Shown: positions 3,491-35,172 of the stretch, piece by piece
Numbering within the stretch: the first letter of the stretch is position 1
How the letters are laid out: the number at the start of each line of letters is the position of its first letter
Source of the DNA: a virus
Taxonomy: Duplodnaviria; Heunggongvirae; Uroviricota; Caudoviricetes
DNA: 64,000 bases
Virus record (IMG/VR): IMGVR_UViG_2690316311_000019
Strand: one strand, 5' to 3'
The notes under the pieces: model-generated
Database searches by the model: none
What the model saw: the letters and a program-made list of their open reading frames with translations, nothing else
What the model was told of the DNA's origin: nothing
Made by a program: the position numbers and the translations under genes

Positions 3491-3568
3491 GATTTTCCCT
3501 AATCACTGTTGTGAAGCCTCATTGTAAGAGAAGTAACTTGTCACCCCGCCCTGCGGACGGGGTGATTG

Positions 3569-27184: not shown

Positions 27185-27445
27185 GCGCAAATGTTGACTA
27201 TGCGCGAAAGTTAATGTGAATAGTTGACTATGCGCGATGTGACTACAGTCAAAAGTTGACTGTAGTCGATTTAACTCCACCAAAGATCGACTATGTAAGA
27301 TATTGTCGGGAGAAACGTTGACTATACGCGATGAAATGACCCTAAAAGCCATCTCAATAGCGACTTGCAGAATATTGACGCCAGCAAAAATCCACCAGCG
27401 TCAACGAATGTCGCCTATAGTCAACTTCTCGCTATCGCATATAGT
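27185..27445. repeat. incA-like iteron array downstream of repA
   Basis: About nine copies of GTTGACTATRCGCGA-type iterons in both orientations. Confidence 0.7.
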
Positions 27446-27450
27446 CAATA

Positions 27451-28335
27451 TTATGGATTGCGCTTATGGATCTGAAAGCCGATTTTCCTGCCGTTTTTTA
27501 TCTCTGAAAATTTAAGATATTCAATAGCTTCCAAATCTTTCATGGCTTTTCTGATAACGCTATTTTGCACGCTAACGGATGATTTGAGATTAAGCCTTGC
27601 TCTAAGGCGCTCAATGCTGACAGGTGCCGGGTTGGCGGGTAGAGCCTCAAAGAATGTATACAGTACCTTGGCCGTCTCTTTGCGCCCGAGCTTATCCAGC
27701 ATCTTCAGCTTCAGGATTCGCTTATAGTCAACATAGTAAAGTTCAGATAGCTGTTTCTGCGGCTGGATCTCGATAACATCAAGCTCGGTATTCAGGCTGC
27801 TATATGCCAACAAGTTGACGTTAATGTTATTGAGATGACCTTTTGCCGCCGGGAAGCGGAATTTGACAACTGTCTGCTGAATGCGTGTCAGAGAGTCATC
27901 AATACTTTTACGGAACGCCTTTGAAAGGCGCTTACGTGGATAGCCGCATCGATCGGCAAACTCGGAGAATGGCAGGGTGATTATGCCGTCATCATCAGGT
28001 GCGTAGTCAAACAACGCGGAGGTTATGCCCACCCACACCTTAAAATCAGTATCCATATCCAGGCGTGGACCATGAATTTCAATTCCCTCATAGCCTTCCT
28101 GCTCAACAATTTTGAGGCTTGATAGTTCTTCGGTTGCGTTCGTTGTGTTTGTAGTAACTGACGATCCGCGACGTAGTGCCACATTGGTAGATTTTAAGGT
28201 TGGCACAAACACACCTAAGCGCAACAAAGCAATGGGTTGTATAGTGCTATTGTTATTGGGTTTCAGGCTGTGGATTTCTCCTGTATTTCCTGCAACTTCT
28301 TCAACGCTAAGGAAGCCTTTATTTTCTTCCAGCAT
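27451..28335 (-). CDS. repA: Iteron-binding replication initiator RepA (P1 RepA-like, divergent)
   Basis: RepA-like motifs (QPIALLRLGVFVP, GPRLDMDTDFKVWVGI); flanked by iterons on both sides; start MLEENKG at 28335 preferred because the upstream extension overlaps the iterons. Confidence 0.8.
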   Translation of the reverse strand: MLEENKGFLSVEEVAGNTGEIHSLKPNNNSTIQPIALLRLGVFVPTLKSTNVALRRGSSVTTNTTNATEELSSLKIVEQEGYEGIEIHGPRLDMDTDFKVWVGITSALFDYAPDDDGIITLPFSEFADRCGYPRKRLSKAFRKSIDDSLTRIQQTVVKFRFPAAKGHLNNINVNLLAYSSLNTELDVIEIQPQKQLSELYYVDYKRILKLKMLDKLGRKETAKVLYTFFEALPANPAPVSIERLRARLNLKSSVSVQNSVIRKAMKDLEAIEYLKFSEIKNGRKIGFQIHKRNP

Positions 28336-28393
28336 CGTGGTTTCTCCATATGTGGCGCGGCCTGGCGTCATCTGGATTGCAGTTATCAACAAC

Positions 28394-28515
28394 TGTGAAT
28401 AGTCAGGCTCTAAAATCGCGTACAGTCAATGTTTCTGTCGCATATAGTCAACAATAAATCGCGTGCAGTCAACAATAAATCGTGCACAGTCAACATAAAA
28501 TCGCGTATAGTCAAT
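28394..28515. repeat. incC-like iteron array in the replication origin
   Basis: Five to six direct repeats of AATCGCGTRCAGTCAAC upstream of repA. Confidence 0.7.
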
Positions 28516-28517
28516 GT

Positions 28518-28626
28518 TGATCCCATTTCAGGCCAGAAATGGCGCGGCTTACAGCGATCCGGGATCTTCTTTGGATCTTCCTGGGTTCTCTTTAGGATCT
28601 GTTTATTGGATCTATGCTGTGGATAA
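28518..28626. other. oriR-like origin elements: GATC cluster and DnaA box
   Basis: GATC sites at 28518, 28555, 28563, 28574, 28596 and 28609; perfect DnaA box TTATCCACA (reverse) at 28618-28626. Confidence 0.65.
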
Positions 28627-28668
28627 GTTGAATAAACCGGCCAACATAGCCGGTTGGAAGGAAGGGTA

Positions 28669-29061
28669 TTATTCTACGCTTTCGATAAGAAGACCATGTT
28701 CATAACATTTAAGCTCATCGCCTTCGTACAGGAATTGGTATCCAATACCACCATTTTCATGGACATTAGGGAATAACTCATAACTCACTGAAGAGCAAAT
28801 CACACCAATGCAGCGATCAACGCCTTCTCGTTCTTCAGTGCTGAAAAAATCCTCTTCGGTAAGAACATGAGTACATTGCTCATCAGCATAGGTCGGAAAT
28901 ACATGCTCGATGCAATCCGGGTGTTTTAAACCAAGCTGATCGGCAAGCTCGAAAGCATGACGGTATTGTTCAGATCCTGGCTTGCCAACAGTGATGTGCT
29001 CAATTTTGTAGATTGAAGTCGCTTTGTTGATAGTTTGCTTTACTGTTACTTTATCAGACAT
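28669..29061 (-). CDS. Hypothetical protein
   Basis: 130-aa ORF. Confidence 0.45.
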   Translation of the reverse strand: MSDKVTVKQTINKATSIYKIEHITVGKPGSEQYRHAFELADQLGLKHPDCIEHVFPTYADEQCTHVLTEEDFFSTEEREGVDRCIGVICSSVSYELFPNVHENGGIGYQFLYEGDELKCYEHGLLIESVE

Positions 29062-29072
29062 AAAAATCCCTT

Positions 29073-29324
29073 TTAGTTACCGCTGATAGCGCGGTTGTAA
29101 TCATTAACGTTGCGATTCTTCCTGTTAATCCCCATCAGCATCGTTTCTGTATCGAGGATATACGCTGGCAGATCATCAAAATATTCACTGCTAAACTCTG
29201 GCATCCTGCACATAAACGCACTTTTGGGGGCAGGGTGGTTAACCTTTGTCGGCGTCGGCGTTAAATTCGCTGATCGACTCCCGGAGCAACCGCTGAGTGT
29301 CAGCAGGAATGCGCTGGCGAACAT
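29073..29324 (-). CDS. Small lipoprotein
   Basis: Lipobox LTLSGC; start uncertain (ORF extends to 29405). Confidence 0.45.
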   Translation of the reverse strand: MFASAFLLTLSGCSGSRSANLTPTPTKVNHPAPKSAFMCRMPEFSSEYFDDLPAYILDTETMLMGINRKNRNVNDYNRAISGN

Positions 29325-29688
29325 TACCCGCCGCAACCAGTTGTTTCTGAACTTCAGCTTTTCGTTCCATTTGCCTGTCAGCATATTTGGCTTGTTCTGA
29401 TTCATTTTTCACTTCCTGGCTGTGAAAATGTTGCTCTGCTTTGTTCATCGTCTCAATGGTCTGGTTAAGATCCATTATTGACTTATCACGTTCCTTAACA
29501 GCCTGATCAAGACTGCCAATTTTCTCCATGGCTTGCTTTAGCTGATGACGTTCCCATGCAAACCCAGCACCAACAAGTGCGCAAATCAGAACAAGAACAC
29601 CAGTAGCAGCAAGTTTCTCCTTCAAAGACAAAGCTGTTTTTAACGTAGAAAAGAATGACATGTCTTCCTCCTGAAGAAAAATTATCAA
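29239..29688 (-). CDS. Membrane-anchored coiled-coil protein
   Basis: 149-aa ORF with N-terminal TM segment; overlaps the lipoprotein ORF in another frame. Confidence 0.4.
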   Translation of the reverse strand: MIIFLQEEDMSFFSTLKTALSLKEKLAATGVLVLICALVGAGFAWERHQLKQAMEKIGSLDQAVKERDKSIMDLNQTIETMNKAEQHFHSQEVKNESEQAKYADRQMERKAEVQKQLVAAGNVRQRIPADTQRLLRESISEFNADADKG

Positions 29689-29700
29689 TGAAGTCCTTTG

Positions 29701-30489
29701 TTACCGTGCCGCTTTGTTTAATTCATCAAGAACAGAATCAGGAACCAAAGCGGCGACTGCGCTGGCTGTGCTGGCCTTATTTGCTGATGCTTCCGCAAGC
29801 GCGGTACCGATAGCATGGTTATAAGCAGTTATGGCTACGTTGGCGCTTTCATTCGCTCGTTCATACTGCTGTTGTAACGCAGTTGTGGGTGCTGTTGTCT
29901 GGTTGAAAACAACCCCAAACTGTTCAGTTGCTACTTTCAGAGATTCAATTTGCTCTTCTGTTAGTGCTGGTGGGGGAGTGGCAGTGCCGCCGCCTGAACC
30001 AGAGCCTGACGAGCTTTCTGAGCCAGTGTTAAGGGCCTGGTTAATCTCCCCCATTGCAGCGACTAAACTTGATGTATTAAGCGCGTTAACAGCGTCCTCA
30101 AGCGATTTAGTAATATTCACATCACCAATGGCAATAGAGATCGGCAGTTCTGAAACTTCTCGCTCATTAGCACGGCAGTAAACATCCCAACCAATATCGA
30201 GTTGAAGCAGCATTGACAGATCTGCATAACCAGCCAACAGGTCCGCGTGCTTAGTTGCCAGTTCTCCAATGTTCGTTAAGCCGGTTGTGGTTGTTCTGAT
30301 CGTTGAAACATAGCTGGTAATAGTGTCGGGATAGACAATTGTATCCAGAATTAATCCGGTCAATTCTTCTGCAAGCAGTTTTGCTGTGTTAGCACTGTTT
30401 CGTGCCGATGTTATGGCACCAGGTGTTTTCATCCCACCGGCGGCGGCCAATTTTTTATATGCGGATAACTGGTAGTCTTTTTCCAGCAT
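29701..30489 (-). CDS. Hypothetical protein
   Basis: ATG at 30489 with GGAGA RBS; Ser/Gly-rich linker. Confidence 0.45.
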   Translation of the reverse strand: MLEKDYQLSAYKKLAAAGGMKTPGAITSARNSANTAKLLAEELTGLILDTIVYPDTITSYVSTIRTTTTGLTNIGELATKHADLLAGYADLSMLLQLDIGWDVYCRANEREVSELPISIAIGDVNITKSLEDAVNALNTSSLVAAMGEINQALNTGSESSSGSGSGGGTATPPPALTEEQIESLKVATEQFGVVFNQTTAPTTALQQQYERANESANVAITAYNHAIGTALAEASANKASTASAVAALVPDSVLDELNKAAR

Positions 30490-30497
30490 GATATCTC

Positions 30498-30782
30498 CTA
30501 ACTTACCTGAACCAGGCCGTCTCCGGACGCTACGGTAGATCCGCATGAAACAGGGTCACCAACGCATACGATCCCTTTACCATTGACGGTAAACCATGCC
30601 CTGGTTGATATAGCTTGCCCACCGTGCGTACTGTTTCCATCGGTATGCTGTGCATATTGCTTACCATCAACTAACACTTCGACTCCGTTGACTTTAAGTA
30701 GTGGTTCACTCTCTACAGGAGGCCTGGATGGGAATCCTCCGTGCCCCGAACAAATGCTGTCTTTTGTTGCAATGCTTGCCAC
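30498..30782 (-). CDS. PAAR-like domain protein
   Basis: 94-aa ORF with GHGG, HGG and VNGKGIVCVGDPVSCG motifs resembling PAAR spike-tip proteins; GTG start. Confidence 0.45.
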   Translation of the reverse strand: MASIATKDSICSGHGGFPSRPPVESEPLLKVNGVEVLVDGKQYAQHTDGNSTHGGQAISTRAWFTVNGKGIVCVGDPVSCGSTVASGDGLVQVS

Positions 30783-30863
30783 GCCATCACCAATTATTTG
30801 CTCTGATTTTCGTTATTTTAACTTAGGTTATTTGTGGTCTGTATGGCGTTTACTTATCGCAAA

Positions 30864-30880
30864 ATTGCTCTAATAAATAT
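30864..30880 (+). promoter_or_regulatory. C1-type operator-like site upstream of the rdgC-dmt operon
   Basis: ATTGCTCTAATAAATAT. Confidence 0.55.
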
Positions 30881-30951
30881 TGTTTTTTATGTCGTATTTT
30901 CGGTACCATTCAGCCATCGCCCTTCAATGGGCATTTGTTTGGAGTCGTCAG

Positions 30952-31236
30952 ATGCAGATGGAGCTAATAAGCCGCAAAGAGTTCGATAGCCGTGTAACCA
31001 GCGGTGAACTCGACAACTTGCAGGCTATCAAGGTGAAAGAAGGCTTTTGCCTCATTGGGAATCAGAGCGGAATAAATCGCGTTTTTATGCTTCGCCGTAC
31101 GGATTTGAAGCCATTTGTCTGGAAGAACGAAATTGGTCCCAGCTCATACGCTCAAACGAGGGGGTGCCACAACCTGGCCTTTTTCTACAAAGACGAGCTT
31201 TCTGTGGTTGATATTCAAGGGTTACAACATGTTTAA
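30952..31236 (+). CDS. Hypothetical protein
   Basis: ATG at 30952 after GGAG; ORF-track TTG start at 30880 lies inside the operator. Confidence 0.45.
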
Positions 31237-32134
31237 GCACTGGAAAAACATTACTATTTATAAACTTTCTCGTGAGGCGGATCTGACCGACTTAGAAGAT
31301 AAAAAGAAAATGATCCTTTTCACGCCATGCGGTAGTCAGGATATGGCCAAGTTCGGTTTTGTATCGCCATTTGGTGATAATTCTGAAGTTATCGCTATGC
31401 ATGGAAATGGTTTTATCCTTGTTGAAGCAAAGCGCGAAACAAAAATTCTTCCCCCGCCGGTTATCCAGCGAGCTATTCAAGAAAAAATTGAAAAACTTGA
31501 GCAAGAACAAGCGCGTAAACTGAAGAAAACAGAGAAGGACTCCCTGAAAGACGAAGTTCTGCATTCTCTTCTGCCACGGGCTTTTTCAAAGTTTTCTGTT
31601 ATCCAGGCGATCTACGACGGTTCAACTAAACGTATCTATATCAATGCCAGCGCGCGGCAGGCAGAGGATATGCTCGCGCTTATGCGTAAGTCTCTGGGTT
31701 CTCTTCCTGCTGTTCCCCTGAGTGTTGAAAATCCCATTGAATTAACGCTGACCGACTGGGTACGTGATGGTAGTGCTCCACAGGGATTTCAAATGGGGGA
31801 TGCGGCAGAACTTAAGGCAGTGCTTGAGGATGGCGGTATTGCCCGAGTGAAAAAGCAGGATTTGGGAAGCGATGAAATTTCCACACACCTGGAAGCTGGC
31901 AAGCTCGTCACTAAGTTGGCACTCGACTGGCAGAACCGCATTAAATTTACACTGGACCATAACTTCAGCCTTACCAGCGTCAAATTTGCGGATGAATTGC
32001 TTGAGCAGAACTCTGATATTGATAGTGAAGATGTTGCGCAGCGACTGGACGCAGATTTCTTCCTGTTGACCAGTGAAATTTCGTGCCTGGTTGATGCTCT
32101 GGTAAATGCCCTTGGCGGAGAGGCTAAGCAGTGA
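31229..32134 (+). CDS. rdgC: Recombination-associated protein RdgC homolog
   Basis: Strong similarity to E. coli RdgC along the length ([45 protein letters not shown]); start MFKHW at 31229. Confidence 0.85.
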
Positions 32135-35100
32135 AAGAGCTGTGCTATGGATCTGTTTGCAGTGGAATTGAAGCCGCGAGTATTGCCTGGGAACCGTTGG
32201 GTATGCGTCCGGCGTGGTTTGCTGAAATCGAGCCTTTTCCATCGGCCGTTCTTGCGCTCCGCTGGCCCCATGTTGCCAACCTTGGCGACATGAAAAAACT
32301 TGCCAAAAAAGTCTTGGCTGGGGAAATCGAATCCCCTGACGTGCTCGTCGGGGGAACACCATGTTTTACCGCGGGGCATATGGTTCTTTGTAAAAATGGC
32401 TATAAACCAATAGAAAATGTTTGCCCTGGTGATTACGTAGTCAGTCATCTCGGGCGGTTACAACAAGTAAAAAGAGTTGGTTCAAAAATAGCTAATACGG
32501 GGTTACTTAATGCCGTTGGGCAGCCTTTAGGTATAAGAACAACCAATGACCATCCCTTCCTGGCTGTTCGGTGGAAAGCCCAAAACACCCGGAAAAATGG
32601 CACATATTTTAAGAGAGAGTTGTTGTCTGAACCGGAATGGCGAGCAGCATGTGATATGCCGGGATATCAATGGTGCGCTCTAACTAATTTCAATATTGCA
32701 TTTCCAGATATTTGTTCTCGGTTCTTGTCTGAAGAACAGGCTATGTATCTTGCGGGCGCTTATGTTGGCGATGGATATATTAGGAGATGGAGAGGTAAAT
32801 CTAAGAAGGCGGTTGTTTTTGGCATAAATTGCCAGAAATTGAGAAAGTTTCATTGCCGCATACCAGAAAACATATTTTCCGTGGCAAGCGAAATCCGAGG
32901 GAGCATCAAAGTAACCTTGAATGATACGTGTTATGCCAATTGGCTTAATGAACATTTTGGCGAGTTAAGCCATGCTAAGCGTATCCCTGCATGGGTGATG
33001 TCGCATCCATTGCGTCATGTGTTTTTACAAGGCTATCTTGATACTGATGGGACACCAAGTGGTAAAGCGGGATTTAGAATTAATAGTGTTAGTTCTGCGC
33101 TTGCTTGGGGCGTTGCGGGGTTGTCACAGACTTGTGGTTATGTTTCTTCGGTCAGCTTTATTGAAGTTGAGCCCAAAAAAGTGATCGAGGATCGCGTGGT
33201 AAATCAACGGAATTATTATCAGGTAACAATCTGCCCGCAGAAATTGTCACGTAAATCAAGATTGGCTCATGGAATGCTTTTACGAACAGTCAAAGAGTTT
33301 AAATCGGTAGGCCTAGATACTGTATACAACATAGAAGTCGAAGGTGATCATTCCTATATCCTCAATGGTGCGGTGGTCCATAACTGTCAGGCATTCAGTA
33401 TCGCGGGATTACGTGGTGGGCTTGATGATGAGCGTGGCGCGCTAACTTTAAAGTATGTGGAGTTTGCAAATGCAATTGACGACAAACGGGCTGAGTCATT
33501 TCTCAAACCAGCCGTTATCGTCTGGGAAAATGTCCCAGGAGTCTTGTCATCGGCAGATAACGCCTTCGGATGTTTCCTTGCCGGATTGGCTGGAGAAGAT
33601 GTGCCATTTGAACCAGGTGATCGACCTGAATCAGGAAAAAGCAACGCGTTCTGGCGGTGGGATGGCAAAACCGGTTGCCATGTTCCAAAGTGGCCGCAGT
33701 GTGGTTGTATTTATGGACCGCAGCGAAAAGTGGCCTGGAGAATCCTTGATGCCCAATACTTCGGAGTGGCACAACGACGCCGACGCGTGTTTGTTGTCGC
33801 AAGTGCTCGAACAGATCTCGATCCCGCAACGGTACTTTTTGAGTTCGAAGGCGTGCGCCGGAATATTGCGCCGAGCAGAGGCGAGGGGAAGGAAACTACC
33901 AGATATACTTCAAACATCGCTATCAGAACTTGCGATGATACAAACATAATTGCCATGGCACATGGGCAAGGAGGGGCTGAGATAAAAACCGATAATTCGG
34001 CACCAACTTTGACATGTAACCATGAAGCACCAATTGTATTGCTCGGCGACGGTAGAATGCGCCGTCTTACCCCTGTCGAATGTGAAAGGCTGCAAGGTTT
34101 TCCTGATTGGCATACGTTGATCCCTACGGAAAAGCGTAAAAAAGTTAATTCAGATGAACTGGCATATCTGCACAATCACTATCCAGATTTAAGCGAAGAA
34201 GAGGCCGCAATGCTTGCAGCTGACGGACCGCGTTACAAAGCGATCGGCAATAGTATGGCAATACCAGTAATGCGCTGGATTGGCGATCGGATTACTAAGG
34301 CCGTATGTCGGCAGAAAGAAGGAAGTGAAACAAAAGAGCGAAAAGTTAAACCAGCGGCAGAATTCGAACGGTCCATATTCAAATGGGCTGGTGGAAAATT
34401 TGGTGTTCTGGAACAAATCTTTCGCTATTTGCCAGAAGGGAAGCGCCTGATTGAACCTTTCGTTGGTGGCGGAGCTGTCTTCATGAATGCCGGATACCAG
34501 GAAAATCTGCTAAATGATGTGAATGCTGACCTGATTAACTTTTACAAGACTCTGCAACGCGAGGCGCATTCACTTATCACTCTGGCACATCGTTTCTTCC
34601 AGGACTACAACACACAGGAAGGATACCTGGCAGTACGGAATGCGTTTAACAAACAAGTCTATGATGATTTACATCGCGCAGCGGCGTTTTTGTTCCTGAA
34701 CCGACATTGTTTTAACGGATTGACGCGTTACAACCAGGCCGGTGAGTTCAATGTCGGTTATGGGAAGTATAAAACTCCGTATTTCCCATTACAGGAGATG
34801 GAAGCCTTCCTCGGTGCGGAAGGGCGGTCTGAGTTTGTATGCGGTGATTTTGCAGCGGTGATTGAAGCTGCCGGAGAAGGAGATGTCATCTTTTGCGATC
34901 CGCCGTATGAACCGCTTCCAAATACAGAGGGATTCACGAACTATTCCGGTCATGACTTTAAGTTTGAAGAGCAAAAACGCCTGGTGTCTCTGTTGACGGA
35001 TGCTCATCGTCGAGGTGCAAAGGTTCTCATTACTAACAGTGGCGCGCCAAACATCAGAGAGCTTTATCATGACAGTGGCTTCAGAGTGGAACCTCTTTTT

Positions 35101-35172
35101 GCCAGACGTTCTGTGTCTTGTAAGGGGGACACTCGAGGTGTAGCTCATGACGTTTTGGGTATATTGCTCTAA
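32131..35172 (+). CDS. dmt: Bifunctional DNA methyltransferase (C5-cytosine domain interrupted by an intein, then Dam-like N6-adenine domain)
   Basis: GTG start coupled to the rdgC stop; C5-MTase motifs (GGTP / CQAFS split by insert, [26 protein letters not shown]) then Dam motifs (KWAGGK, DPPY). Confidence 0.85.
32362..33384 (+). other. Intein with LAGLIDADG homing endonuclease domain inserted in C5-MTase motif IV
   Basis: 341-aa insert: starts CFTAGHMV, block B TTNDHPFL, two LAGLIDADG-like motifs ([19 protein letters not shown]), terminal [21 protein letters not shown] followed by +1 Cys; removal restores GGTPCQAFS. Confidence 0.85.

Follow-up and report, generated by a model that had tools for sequence, protein, structure and literature searches.

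The 94-amino-acid (94-aa) protein considered here is almost certainly UpfC of a P1-type phage-plasmid, the PAAR-type tip of the gp5 tail spike, encoded in an operon of late virion and lysis genes. UpfC is already known from an annotation of 2004 that linked it to T4 gp5.4, from an HHpred assignment as a spike tip in 2022 and from cryo-EM models of 2025-2026. The sections below set out the identity of the protein, its fold and metal site, its place in the virion, and the position of its gene beside a plasmid origin of replication.

Identity of the 94-aa protein

The window, i.e. the whole 64,000-nucleotide stretch of viral DNA that was analysed, belongs to a P1-type phage-plasmid (Punavirus). 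By megablast, window positions 27400-32200 (4.8 kb) are matched over their full length by P1-type phages, with 99.9% identity to Escherichia phage vB_EcoM-Ro157c2YLVW and 96-98% identity to P1, P7, RCS47 and SJ46. The upfC gene lies on the minus strand at 30498-30782, with a GTG start codon and a TAG stop codon at 30498-30500. A first-pass annotation made from the sequence had described a 94-aa minus-strand open reading frame (ORF) with the motifs GHGG, HGG and VNGKGIVCVGDPVSCG; the ORF is exactly as described, and the motifs occupy residues 13-16, 53-55 and 66-81, respectively.

The window protein is identical to P1 UpfC (AAQ14038) at 93 of 94 positions, the sole change being A86S, and it is likewise 93/94 identical to chain A of PDB 9VYI, the UpfC chain of the P1 baseplate solved by cryo-EM. 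The curated P1 record AF234172 has upfC at the corresponding position, and this annotation (2004) mentions a similarity to T4 ORF 5.4. Orthology to P1 upfC is indicated by the near-identical sequence (99%) together with the flanks, which are those of AF234172: upfC-upfB-ppfA-mlp-upfA run in the same order on one side, and Op68/Pdmt-uhr-hrdC-dmt lie on the other. The window differs from P1 in its RepA type and in an intein-like insert in dmt, neither of which affects UpfC. Relatives of UpfC are encoded at 330 IMG/VR loci, and there are 71 homologue clusters, the majority with a precomputed match to PF05488 (PF05488.19). Judged by its near-identity to P1 UpfC and by the number of these loci and clusters, the upfC ORF is a real gene and not a chance ORF.

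Database names for this protein call for some care. Many UpfC homologues in NCBI/UniRef carry the name "alanine racemase" (clusters P0005, P0007, P0009, P0011, P0015, P0028, P0038 and P0042), and the SJ46 record (KU760857) lists an "alanine racemase" among the genes of the upfC region. The name is evidently a legacy misannotation of the 94-aa PAAR protein.

PAAR fold and metal site

A phmmer search of PDB with UpfC as the query retrieved the tip protein of Klebsiella phage KP1 (9F4B_BA, 5e-10), T4 gp5.4 (5IV5/4KU0, ~1e-7) and the Vibrio cholerae type VI secretion system (T6SS) protein VCA0105 (4JIV_D, 3.7e-4). PHROG 281, "PAAR motif", matches residues 1-93 at 2e-30. The Pfam PAAR_motif profile covers residues 51-91 only and reaches 26.4 bits (E=8.5e-6), just short of its gathering score, 27. 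NCBI names several homologues "PAAR domain-containing protein". The literal PAAR motifs of T6SS proteins are degenerate in UpfC: the P-A-A-R tetrapeptide is absent, and the equivalent positions read NGVEVLVDG and NGKGIVCVGD. T4 gp5.4 likewise lacks the literal tetrapeptide and is still accepted as a PAAR-repeat protein (PMC12407873).

The AlphaFold2 model of UpfC, built from a 22-sequence alignment, is all-beta with a mean pLDDT of 96.5, and it is predicted to form the cone of three intertwined beta-hairpins by which the PAAR-repeat family (PF05488/cd14671) is recognized. In Foldseek searches the model superimposes on 9VYI with a TM score of 0.96 and an rmsd of 0.7 A, and on T4 gp5.4 (4KU0_D, 0.87), VCA0105 (4JIV_D, 0.88) and Escherichia coli c1882 (4JIW_D, 0.87), these last three with a probability of 1.00. 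A further match is phiKZ gp163.1 (6P1Z_D, TM 0.69); beyond these five, Foldseek gave no significant match for the model.

Across 22 homologues, at identities down to 40%, four residues of UpfC do not vary: H14, H46, H53 and C80. They align with H14, H46, H56 and C83 of gp5.4. In gp5.4, the three histidines and the cysteine form a tetrahedral Fe site that is required for folding and spike binding, and an H14A mutant is defective (PMC12407873). Going by the conserved ligands, the 3-His/1-Cys metal site of PAAR tips is kept in UpfC. The proposal of a PAAR-like spike tip had been offered together with a profile search and a structure prediction as checks, and with the proviso that it should fall if sensitive profile methods returned no PAAR-fold hit. 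Both analyses returned PAAR proteins, and the sequence profile, the predicted fold, the metal ligands and the published cryo-EM all agree with the proposal.

Place in the virion and function

The gene for the spike itself lies at 40802-41434 on the minus strand and encodes a trimeric beta-helical protein that matches PDB 9VZK_q, "Gp5" (E=7e-136), and phrog_430, "baseplate hub subunit". What had been reported as a spike-like gene far from the 94-aa ORF is P1 gene 5, 10.0 kb from upfC. According to the cryo-EM structure of the P1 baseplate, the spike consists of trimeric gp5 and monomeric UpfC, and UpfB forms three trimers, a "tripod" anchored to the UpfC tip (PMC12810830). A second cryo-EM study also models a UpfC monomer on the gp5 trimer (bioRxiv 10.1101/2025.07.21.665459). 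The earlier identification of UpfC as a gp5.4-like spike tip was made by HHpred (Gonzales et al. 2022, PMC9024508). Virion proteomics, which had been suggested as a further check, is already published: LC-MS/MS of P1 virions did not detect UpfC, for which one copy per virion is expected (PMC9024508). The protein was later detected in the particle by cryo-EM (PMC12810830).

Taken with the model and the metal site, these structures give a picture of how UpfC acts. UpfC is very probably a monomeric PAAR-repeat cone whose three beta-hairpins are joined by the 3-His/1-Cys metal site. Seated on the blunt end of the gp5 trimer's beta-helix, it gives the tail spike a sharp tip, and sheath contraction would then drive the UpfC-tipped spike through the host outer membrane.

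A functional parallel is offered by T4. Among the tail proteins of T4 and P1, gp5.4 and UpfC are the only pair that matches by BLAST (Mattenberger et al., PMC12407873). Like UpfC, gp5.4 is a monomeric PAAR-repeat cone on a gp5 beta-helix (~29-31% identity, TM 0.87), with the same His14/His/His/Cys site, and it too is dispensable for plaques on standard hosts. The two systems differ in that the T4 gp5.4 gene lies in the baseplate-hub cluster near gene 5, unlike upfC in P1, and in that T4 gp5 has a lysozyme domain, which P1 gp5 lacks, whereas in P1 the tip also bears the UpfB tripod (PMC12810830).

Tip proteins of the same fold also serve the T6SS, and a host or plasmid cargo gene for a T6SS PAAR protein, one that sharpens a VgrG spike or carries an effector and lies on the phage-plasmid by chance, would look similar in several respects. 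Some homologues are named [quoted passage not shown], and the fold of UpfC is indistinguishable from those of VCA0105 (4JIV) and c1882 (4JIW), which share its metal site, cap a trimeric beta-helical spike and superimpose at TM 0.87-0.88. These proteins are, however, only 14-22% identical to UpfC, cap the VgrG of a secretion system and often carry or recruit effectors, whereas UpfC is a minimal protein of 94 aa with no effector or adaptor extension. VgrG, Hcp and TssB/C are absent from the vicinity of upfC, which is surrounded by genes of phage P1. Most homologues with at least 50% identity come from contigs of ~80-100 kb, the size of P1-like phage-plasmids, and distant homologues sit between the phage baseplate genes gpV and gpW. 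Since cryo-EM locates UpfC on the phage spike (PMC12810830), a T6SS role is refuted in practice and retains only a very slight probability.

If UpfC is the tip of the P1 spike, it could still be a vestige, conserved and no longer important to the phage. Deletion of upfC produces neither a plating defect nor a plaque phenotype (PMC9024508), genome-wide CRISPRi scored upfC, upfB, ppfA, mlp and upfA all as non-essential (PMC10695390), and both studies concern plating on laboratory E. coli. Against a vestigial tip stand its presence in the virion (PMC12810830) and its conservation, with UpfC remaining 55-66% identical where UpfB has fallen to 27-30% and gp5 to 44-52%. The T4 counterpart also speaks against it: loss of gp5.4 gives no plaque defect on wild-type hosts, and the protein is dispensable for assembly, yet it is needed for fitness and for infection of deep-rough lipopolysaccharide (LPS) mutants (PMC12407873). 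A vestigial role is accordingly held to be improbable. The more attractive reading is a working spike tip whose function, by analogy with gp5.4, is probably related to host range or fitness.

The upfC operon and the adjoining replicon

Five minus-strand genes, upfC, upfB, ppfA, mlp and upfA, run from 30782 to 28669, with upfC first. The second gene, upfB (29701-30489, minus strand, in its 262-aa form), encodes the tip partner seen as the tripod by cryo-EM and matches phrog_1559 over positions 1-262 of 263 (E=1e-137). No solved structure is related to UpfB, and Pfam gives no convincing domain for it. Only 8 nt separate its ATG at 30489 from the upfC stop codon, and a GGAG Shine-Dalgarno sequence overlaps that stop, an arrangement that suggests translational coupling of the two genes. 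UpfB might conceivably serve as an adaptor or cargo borne by the tip, in analogy to the PAAR-associated proteins of the T6SS.

The start of UpfB deserves a separate remark. The annotated form of 281 aa, with its ATG at 30546 (29701-30546), shares 49 nt with upfC; phrog_1559 fits the shorter form of 262 aa end to end, and homologues start at the equivalent Met. From these alignments, the UpfB annotation in AF234172 is probably too long.

The next two genes resemble a spanin pair. PpfA (29239-29661, minus strand) is an Rz-like spanin by P1 annotation and by its match to phrog_89 (E=1.5e-25; PMC9025707), and its sequence resembles an i-spanin in having a membrane anchor at the N-terminus and a coiled coil. 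Mlp (29073-29405, minus strand) is an Rz1-like lipoprotein spanin by P1 annotation and by its match to phrog_30284, "Rz-like spanin" (E=2e-77). Like an o-spanin it has a lipobox, LSGC, and mlp and the 3' end of ppfA share sequence in different frames. The last gene is upfA (28669-29061, minus strand), named from the P1 annotation and matching phrog_1453, a family of unknown function (E=2e-61). A terminator-like hairpin at 28641-28657 on the minus strand, found by pattern scan as a consensus match only, closes the operon just before oriR.

Directly beyond the hairpin lies the origin of replication (28411-28630), which combines a DnaA box (TTATCCACA) and a cluster of GATC sites with five iterons at a spacing of 21 bp. 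It is followed by repA (27451-28392) and a second iteron field, so that these elements together span window positions 27189-28630. The five-gene leftward operon headed by upfC beside a replication origin, as set out in the first-pass annotation, could thus be located in full, with its gene run, its hairpin and the adjoining origin. Since its products include the UpfB tripod and the PpfA/Mlp spanins, the operon holds late virion and lysis genes rather than replicon genes; it is a unit beside oriR and outside the replicon.

At most P1-type IMG/VR loci, RepA shares only ~40% identity with the window RepA; at a minority the figure is 98-100%. A homology breakpoint lies near window position 28530, where the megablast match to P1 and P7 begins. 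The upfC operon is 96-99% conserved despite the differing RepA. As read from these alignments, the replicon has been exchanged beside a conserved upfC operon. Some database records name the window RepA "RepFIB replication protein A".

The exchange bears on the idea that UpfC is a plasmid-maintenance or replication accessory in which the PAAR-like motifs are coincidental. That idea draws on the position of the operon next to oriR/repA and on one relative in which the tip gene lies beside the partition genes parM/stbB. It is hard to reconcile with an operon that stays constant while the replicon is swapped, with expression late in the lytic cycle, unlike that of repA and parAB (PMC8201110 Table S1), and with the spike-tip fold and metal site. 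Of the explanations weighed here, an accessory role is the one with the least to recommend it, and its probability is close to nil.

On the far side of upfC, the window dmt gene (32131-35172, plus strand) encodes a Dmt of 1013 aa, compared with 754 aa in reference P1. The extra ~259 aa interrupt the catalytic P-C-Q motif of the C5-methyltransferase domain (GGTPC | FTAGH...VVHN | CQAFS), and the insert matches Pfam Hint_2 (aa 77-126) and LAGLIDADG_3 (aa 298-361). These matches indicate a putative intein with a homing-endonuclease domain. Long and short forms of dmt both occur among P1-type IMG/VR loci, and the P1 isolate OP279344 has the 3042-nt form. A literature search on an intein in phage P1 dmt found nothing relevant.

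Gene order in relatives

The distance between upfC and gene 5 had been remarked on, with a tip gene lying next to the replicon rather than in the tail modules. A comparison of relatives bears out the description, and within this lineage the location is not anomalous. The evolutionary comparison used a species-dereplicated genome collection; the best 80 of the 330 IMG/VR loci are near-identical P1 only. Among relatives in which UpfC is 56-66% identical, most have the order gp24-gp6-gp5-hrdC-(dmt)-upfC-upfB on one strand (12 loci with gene 5 within the fetched flank), and the shortest gap between gp5 and upfC at these 12 loci is 2.5 kb. The hosts of the 12 loci are Xenorhabdus, Serratia, Pantoea, Citrobacter and Buttiauxella, together with metagenomic elements; in the Xenorhabdus, Serratia, Pantoea and Citrobacter relatives, the order that places upfC next to hrdC-dmt and the spike genes is still intact.

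At 14 of 17 divergent P1-like loci, the gene next downstream of the tip gene belongs to the UpfB family; there UpfB is 27-47% identical at UpfC identities of 56-73%. After the tip genes of L096, L105 and L109, UpfB is undetectable. In Xenorhabdus szentirmaii (L098, 10286-11033) two ORFs of 118 and 145 aa take the place of a single UpfB homologue, which reflects either a frameshift or pseudogene or a sequencing error. One 5.9-kb contig labelled "MAG: Bacillota bacterium" (L092, JAFAFU010000017.1) carries dmt-hrdC-upfC-upfB-ppfA-mlp-upfA with products 92-99% identical to those of the window (UpfC 99%). Mis-binning of an enterobacterial P1-like contig is the likeliest explanation.

Further afield, at less than 50% identity, the PAAR gene is immediately preceded by a spike gene in eight of ten sampled loci and also in L004, a P2-like myophage. 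In six of the eight the upstream gene is a Phage_base_V gene, and in L120 it has a weak tblastn match to P1 gp5 (25% identity). At L133 the upstream gene has a Pfam match that we take to be the phi92 gp138 spike N-domain. The L004 tip is 94 aa long, 43% identical to UpfC and matched by PF05488. Its gene is in the canonical place, in the order gpV-PAAR-gpW between gpV (Phage_base_V) and gpW/gp25, and unlike P1 it is not followed by UpfB. In a Synergistales MAG (L129, 9310-10017), a DNA methylase gene (N6_N4_Mtase) is directly upstream of the PAAR gene and there is no spike gene at that place; this recalls the dmt-upfC adjacency of P1-like elements and may be a coincidence.

In the P1/P7 clade the hrdC-dmt block is on the opposite strand, and gene 5 shares its strand with upfC at a distance of ~8-10 kb. 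An inverted hrdC-dmt-ban block is shared with this clade by L094, in which gene 5 was not found within the 10-kb flank. Between dmt and gene 5, the P1 annotation lists tRNA genes, plp, upl, tciA-C, ban and dbn, of which ban and dbn were checked in the window. Given the gene order in relatives, the 10-kb separation of upfC from gene 5 in P1 looks like an inverted, expanded insert. Across the loci compared, upfC beside the plasmid origin is the normal and conserved order of P1-type phage-plasmids. An early hrdC-dmt-ban block was probably inserted between the spike and tip genes and then inverted and expanded in the P1 lineage. On the most economical reading, the insertion of early genes would have taken place in the common ancestor of P1-like elements, and the later inversion and expansion would have left upfC heading its own transcription unit beside oriR.

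Late expression and promoter candidates

Published RNA-seq of P1vir infection gives log fold changes for these genes at two times, 10 and 30 min (PMC8201110 Table S1). Within the operon the values are 4.86/10.63 for upfC, 4.12/11.07 for upfB, 5.57/11.25 for ppfA, 4.15/10.53 for mlp and 5.21/11.24 for upfA. The structural late genes behave alike, with 4.23/9.90 for gene 5, 3.60/10.81 for gene 6 and 5.44/12.07 for gene 23. The divergent early neighbours differ in being high by 10 min (uhr 8.62, hrdC 9.40, dmt 8.85), with hrdC and dmt reaching 12.0 and 11.2 at 30 min, and parA and parB are also high already at 10 min (PMC8201110 Table S1). The upfC operon is thus late-expressed, with kinetics like those of the structural genes.

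In the P1 record, no late promoter is annotated upstream of upfC, and an exact search for the canonical palindromic Lpa box, AAGTNACTT, finds none near the gene. In the whole window this box has 5 matches against 0.98 expected, at 3531, 6615, 16837, 19458 and 23803. At 3539(-) and 23811(-), a TANNNT -10 hexamer comes 4 nt after the box, and these two copies are therefore probably genuine late promoters.

A candidate late promoter for the upfC operon lies on the minus strand at 30815-30833. It consists of the box AAATAACCT, a 4-nt spacer AAGT and the -10 hexamer TAAAAT, the same layout as in the annotated P1 late promoters LP26 (AAATGACTA-GCGG-TAGAAT) and LPpac (ATGTGACTT-TCGT-TACCCT). The relaxed late-promoter pattern is weakly specific, with 12 matches in the window against 7.5 +/- 2.6 in shuffles. 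P1 itself has the box AAATAATCT at this place, with 3 mismatches. Among 83 P1-type loci the -10 hexamer and the spacing are nearly invariant and the box is variable, with variants nearer the consensus (AAGTAACCT, AAATAACTT) and farther from it (AAACAACCT). The candidate is absent from most divergent relatives, in which upfC is fused to the upstream operon. Two other relatives with a free intergenic region upstream of the tip gene have similar elements ~50 nt before the start codon, ATGTAACTA-TTAA-TAAACT in L109 and AAATGACTG-GATC-CATACT in L094. That an unannotated late promoter at 30833-30815 drives the operon is therefore put forward tentatively, as a candidate with somewhat less than an even chance of being correct.

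A sigma-70 promoter for upfC was considered and rejected: the best match, 9/12 (TTAAAA, 17 nt, AATAAT), has a -10 element that ends 11 nt before the start codon, and the total of the sigma-70 scan is no higher than in shuffles. The divergent intergenic region between upfC and uhr-hrdC-dmt also holds an operator of the C1 repressor (Op68/Odmt) at 30864-30880 on the plus strand, ATTGCTCTAATAAATAT, at the position of the annotated P1 Odmt.

The gene order and the promoter candidate can be joined into two linked proposals. The P1/P7 clade may have split an ancestral late operon, 26-25-7-24-6-5-(hrdC-dmt)-upfC-upfB, and the upfC-upfB-spanin genes may then have come under the unannotated and possibly Lpa-dependent late promoter described above. 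As a pair, these proposals are speculative and rather unlikely to hold in full.

Implications

A motif-level reading of the raw sequence identified the PAAR tip correctly, and this provides a useful calibration point. The location of the gene tells the complementary story: in mosaic phage-plasmids, position alone, here beside oriR, is a poor guide to function.
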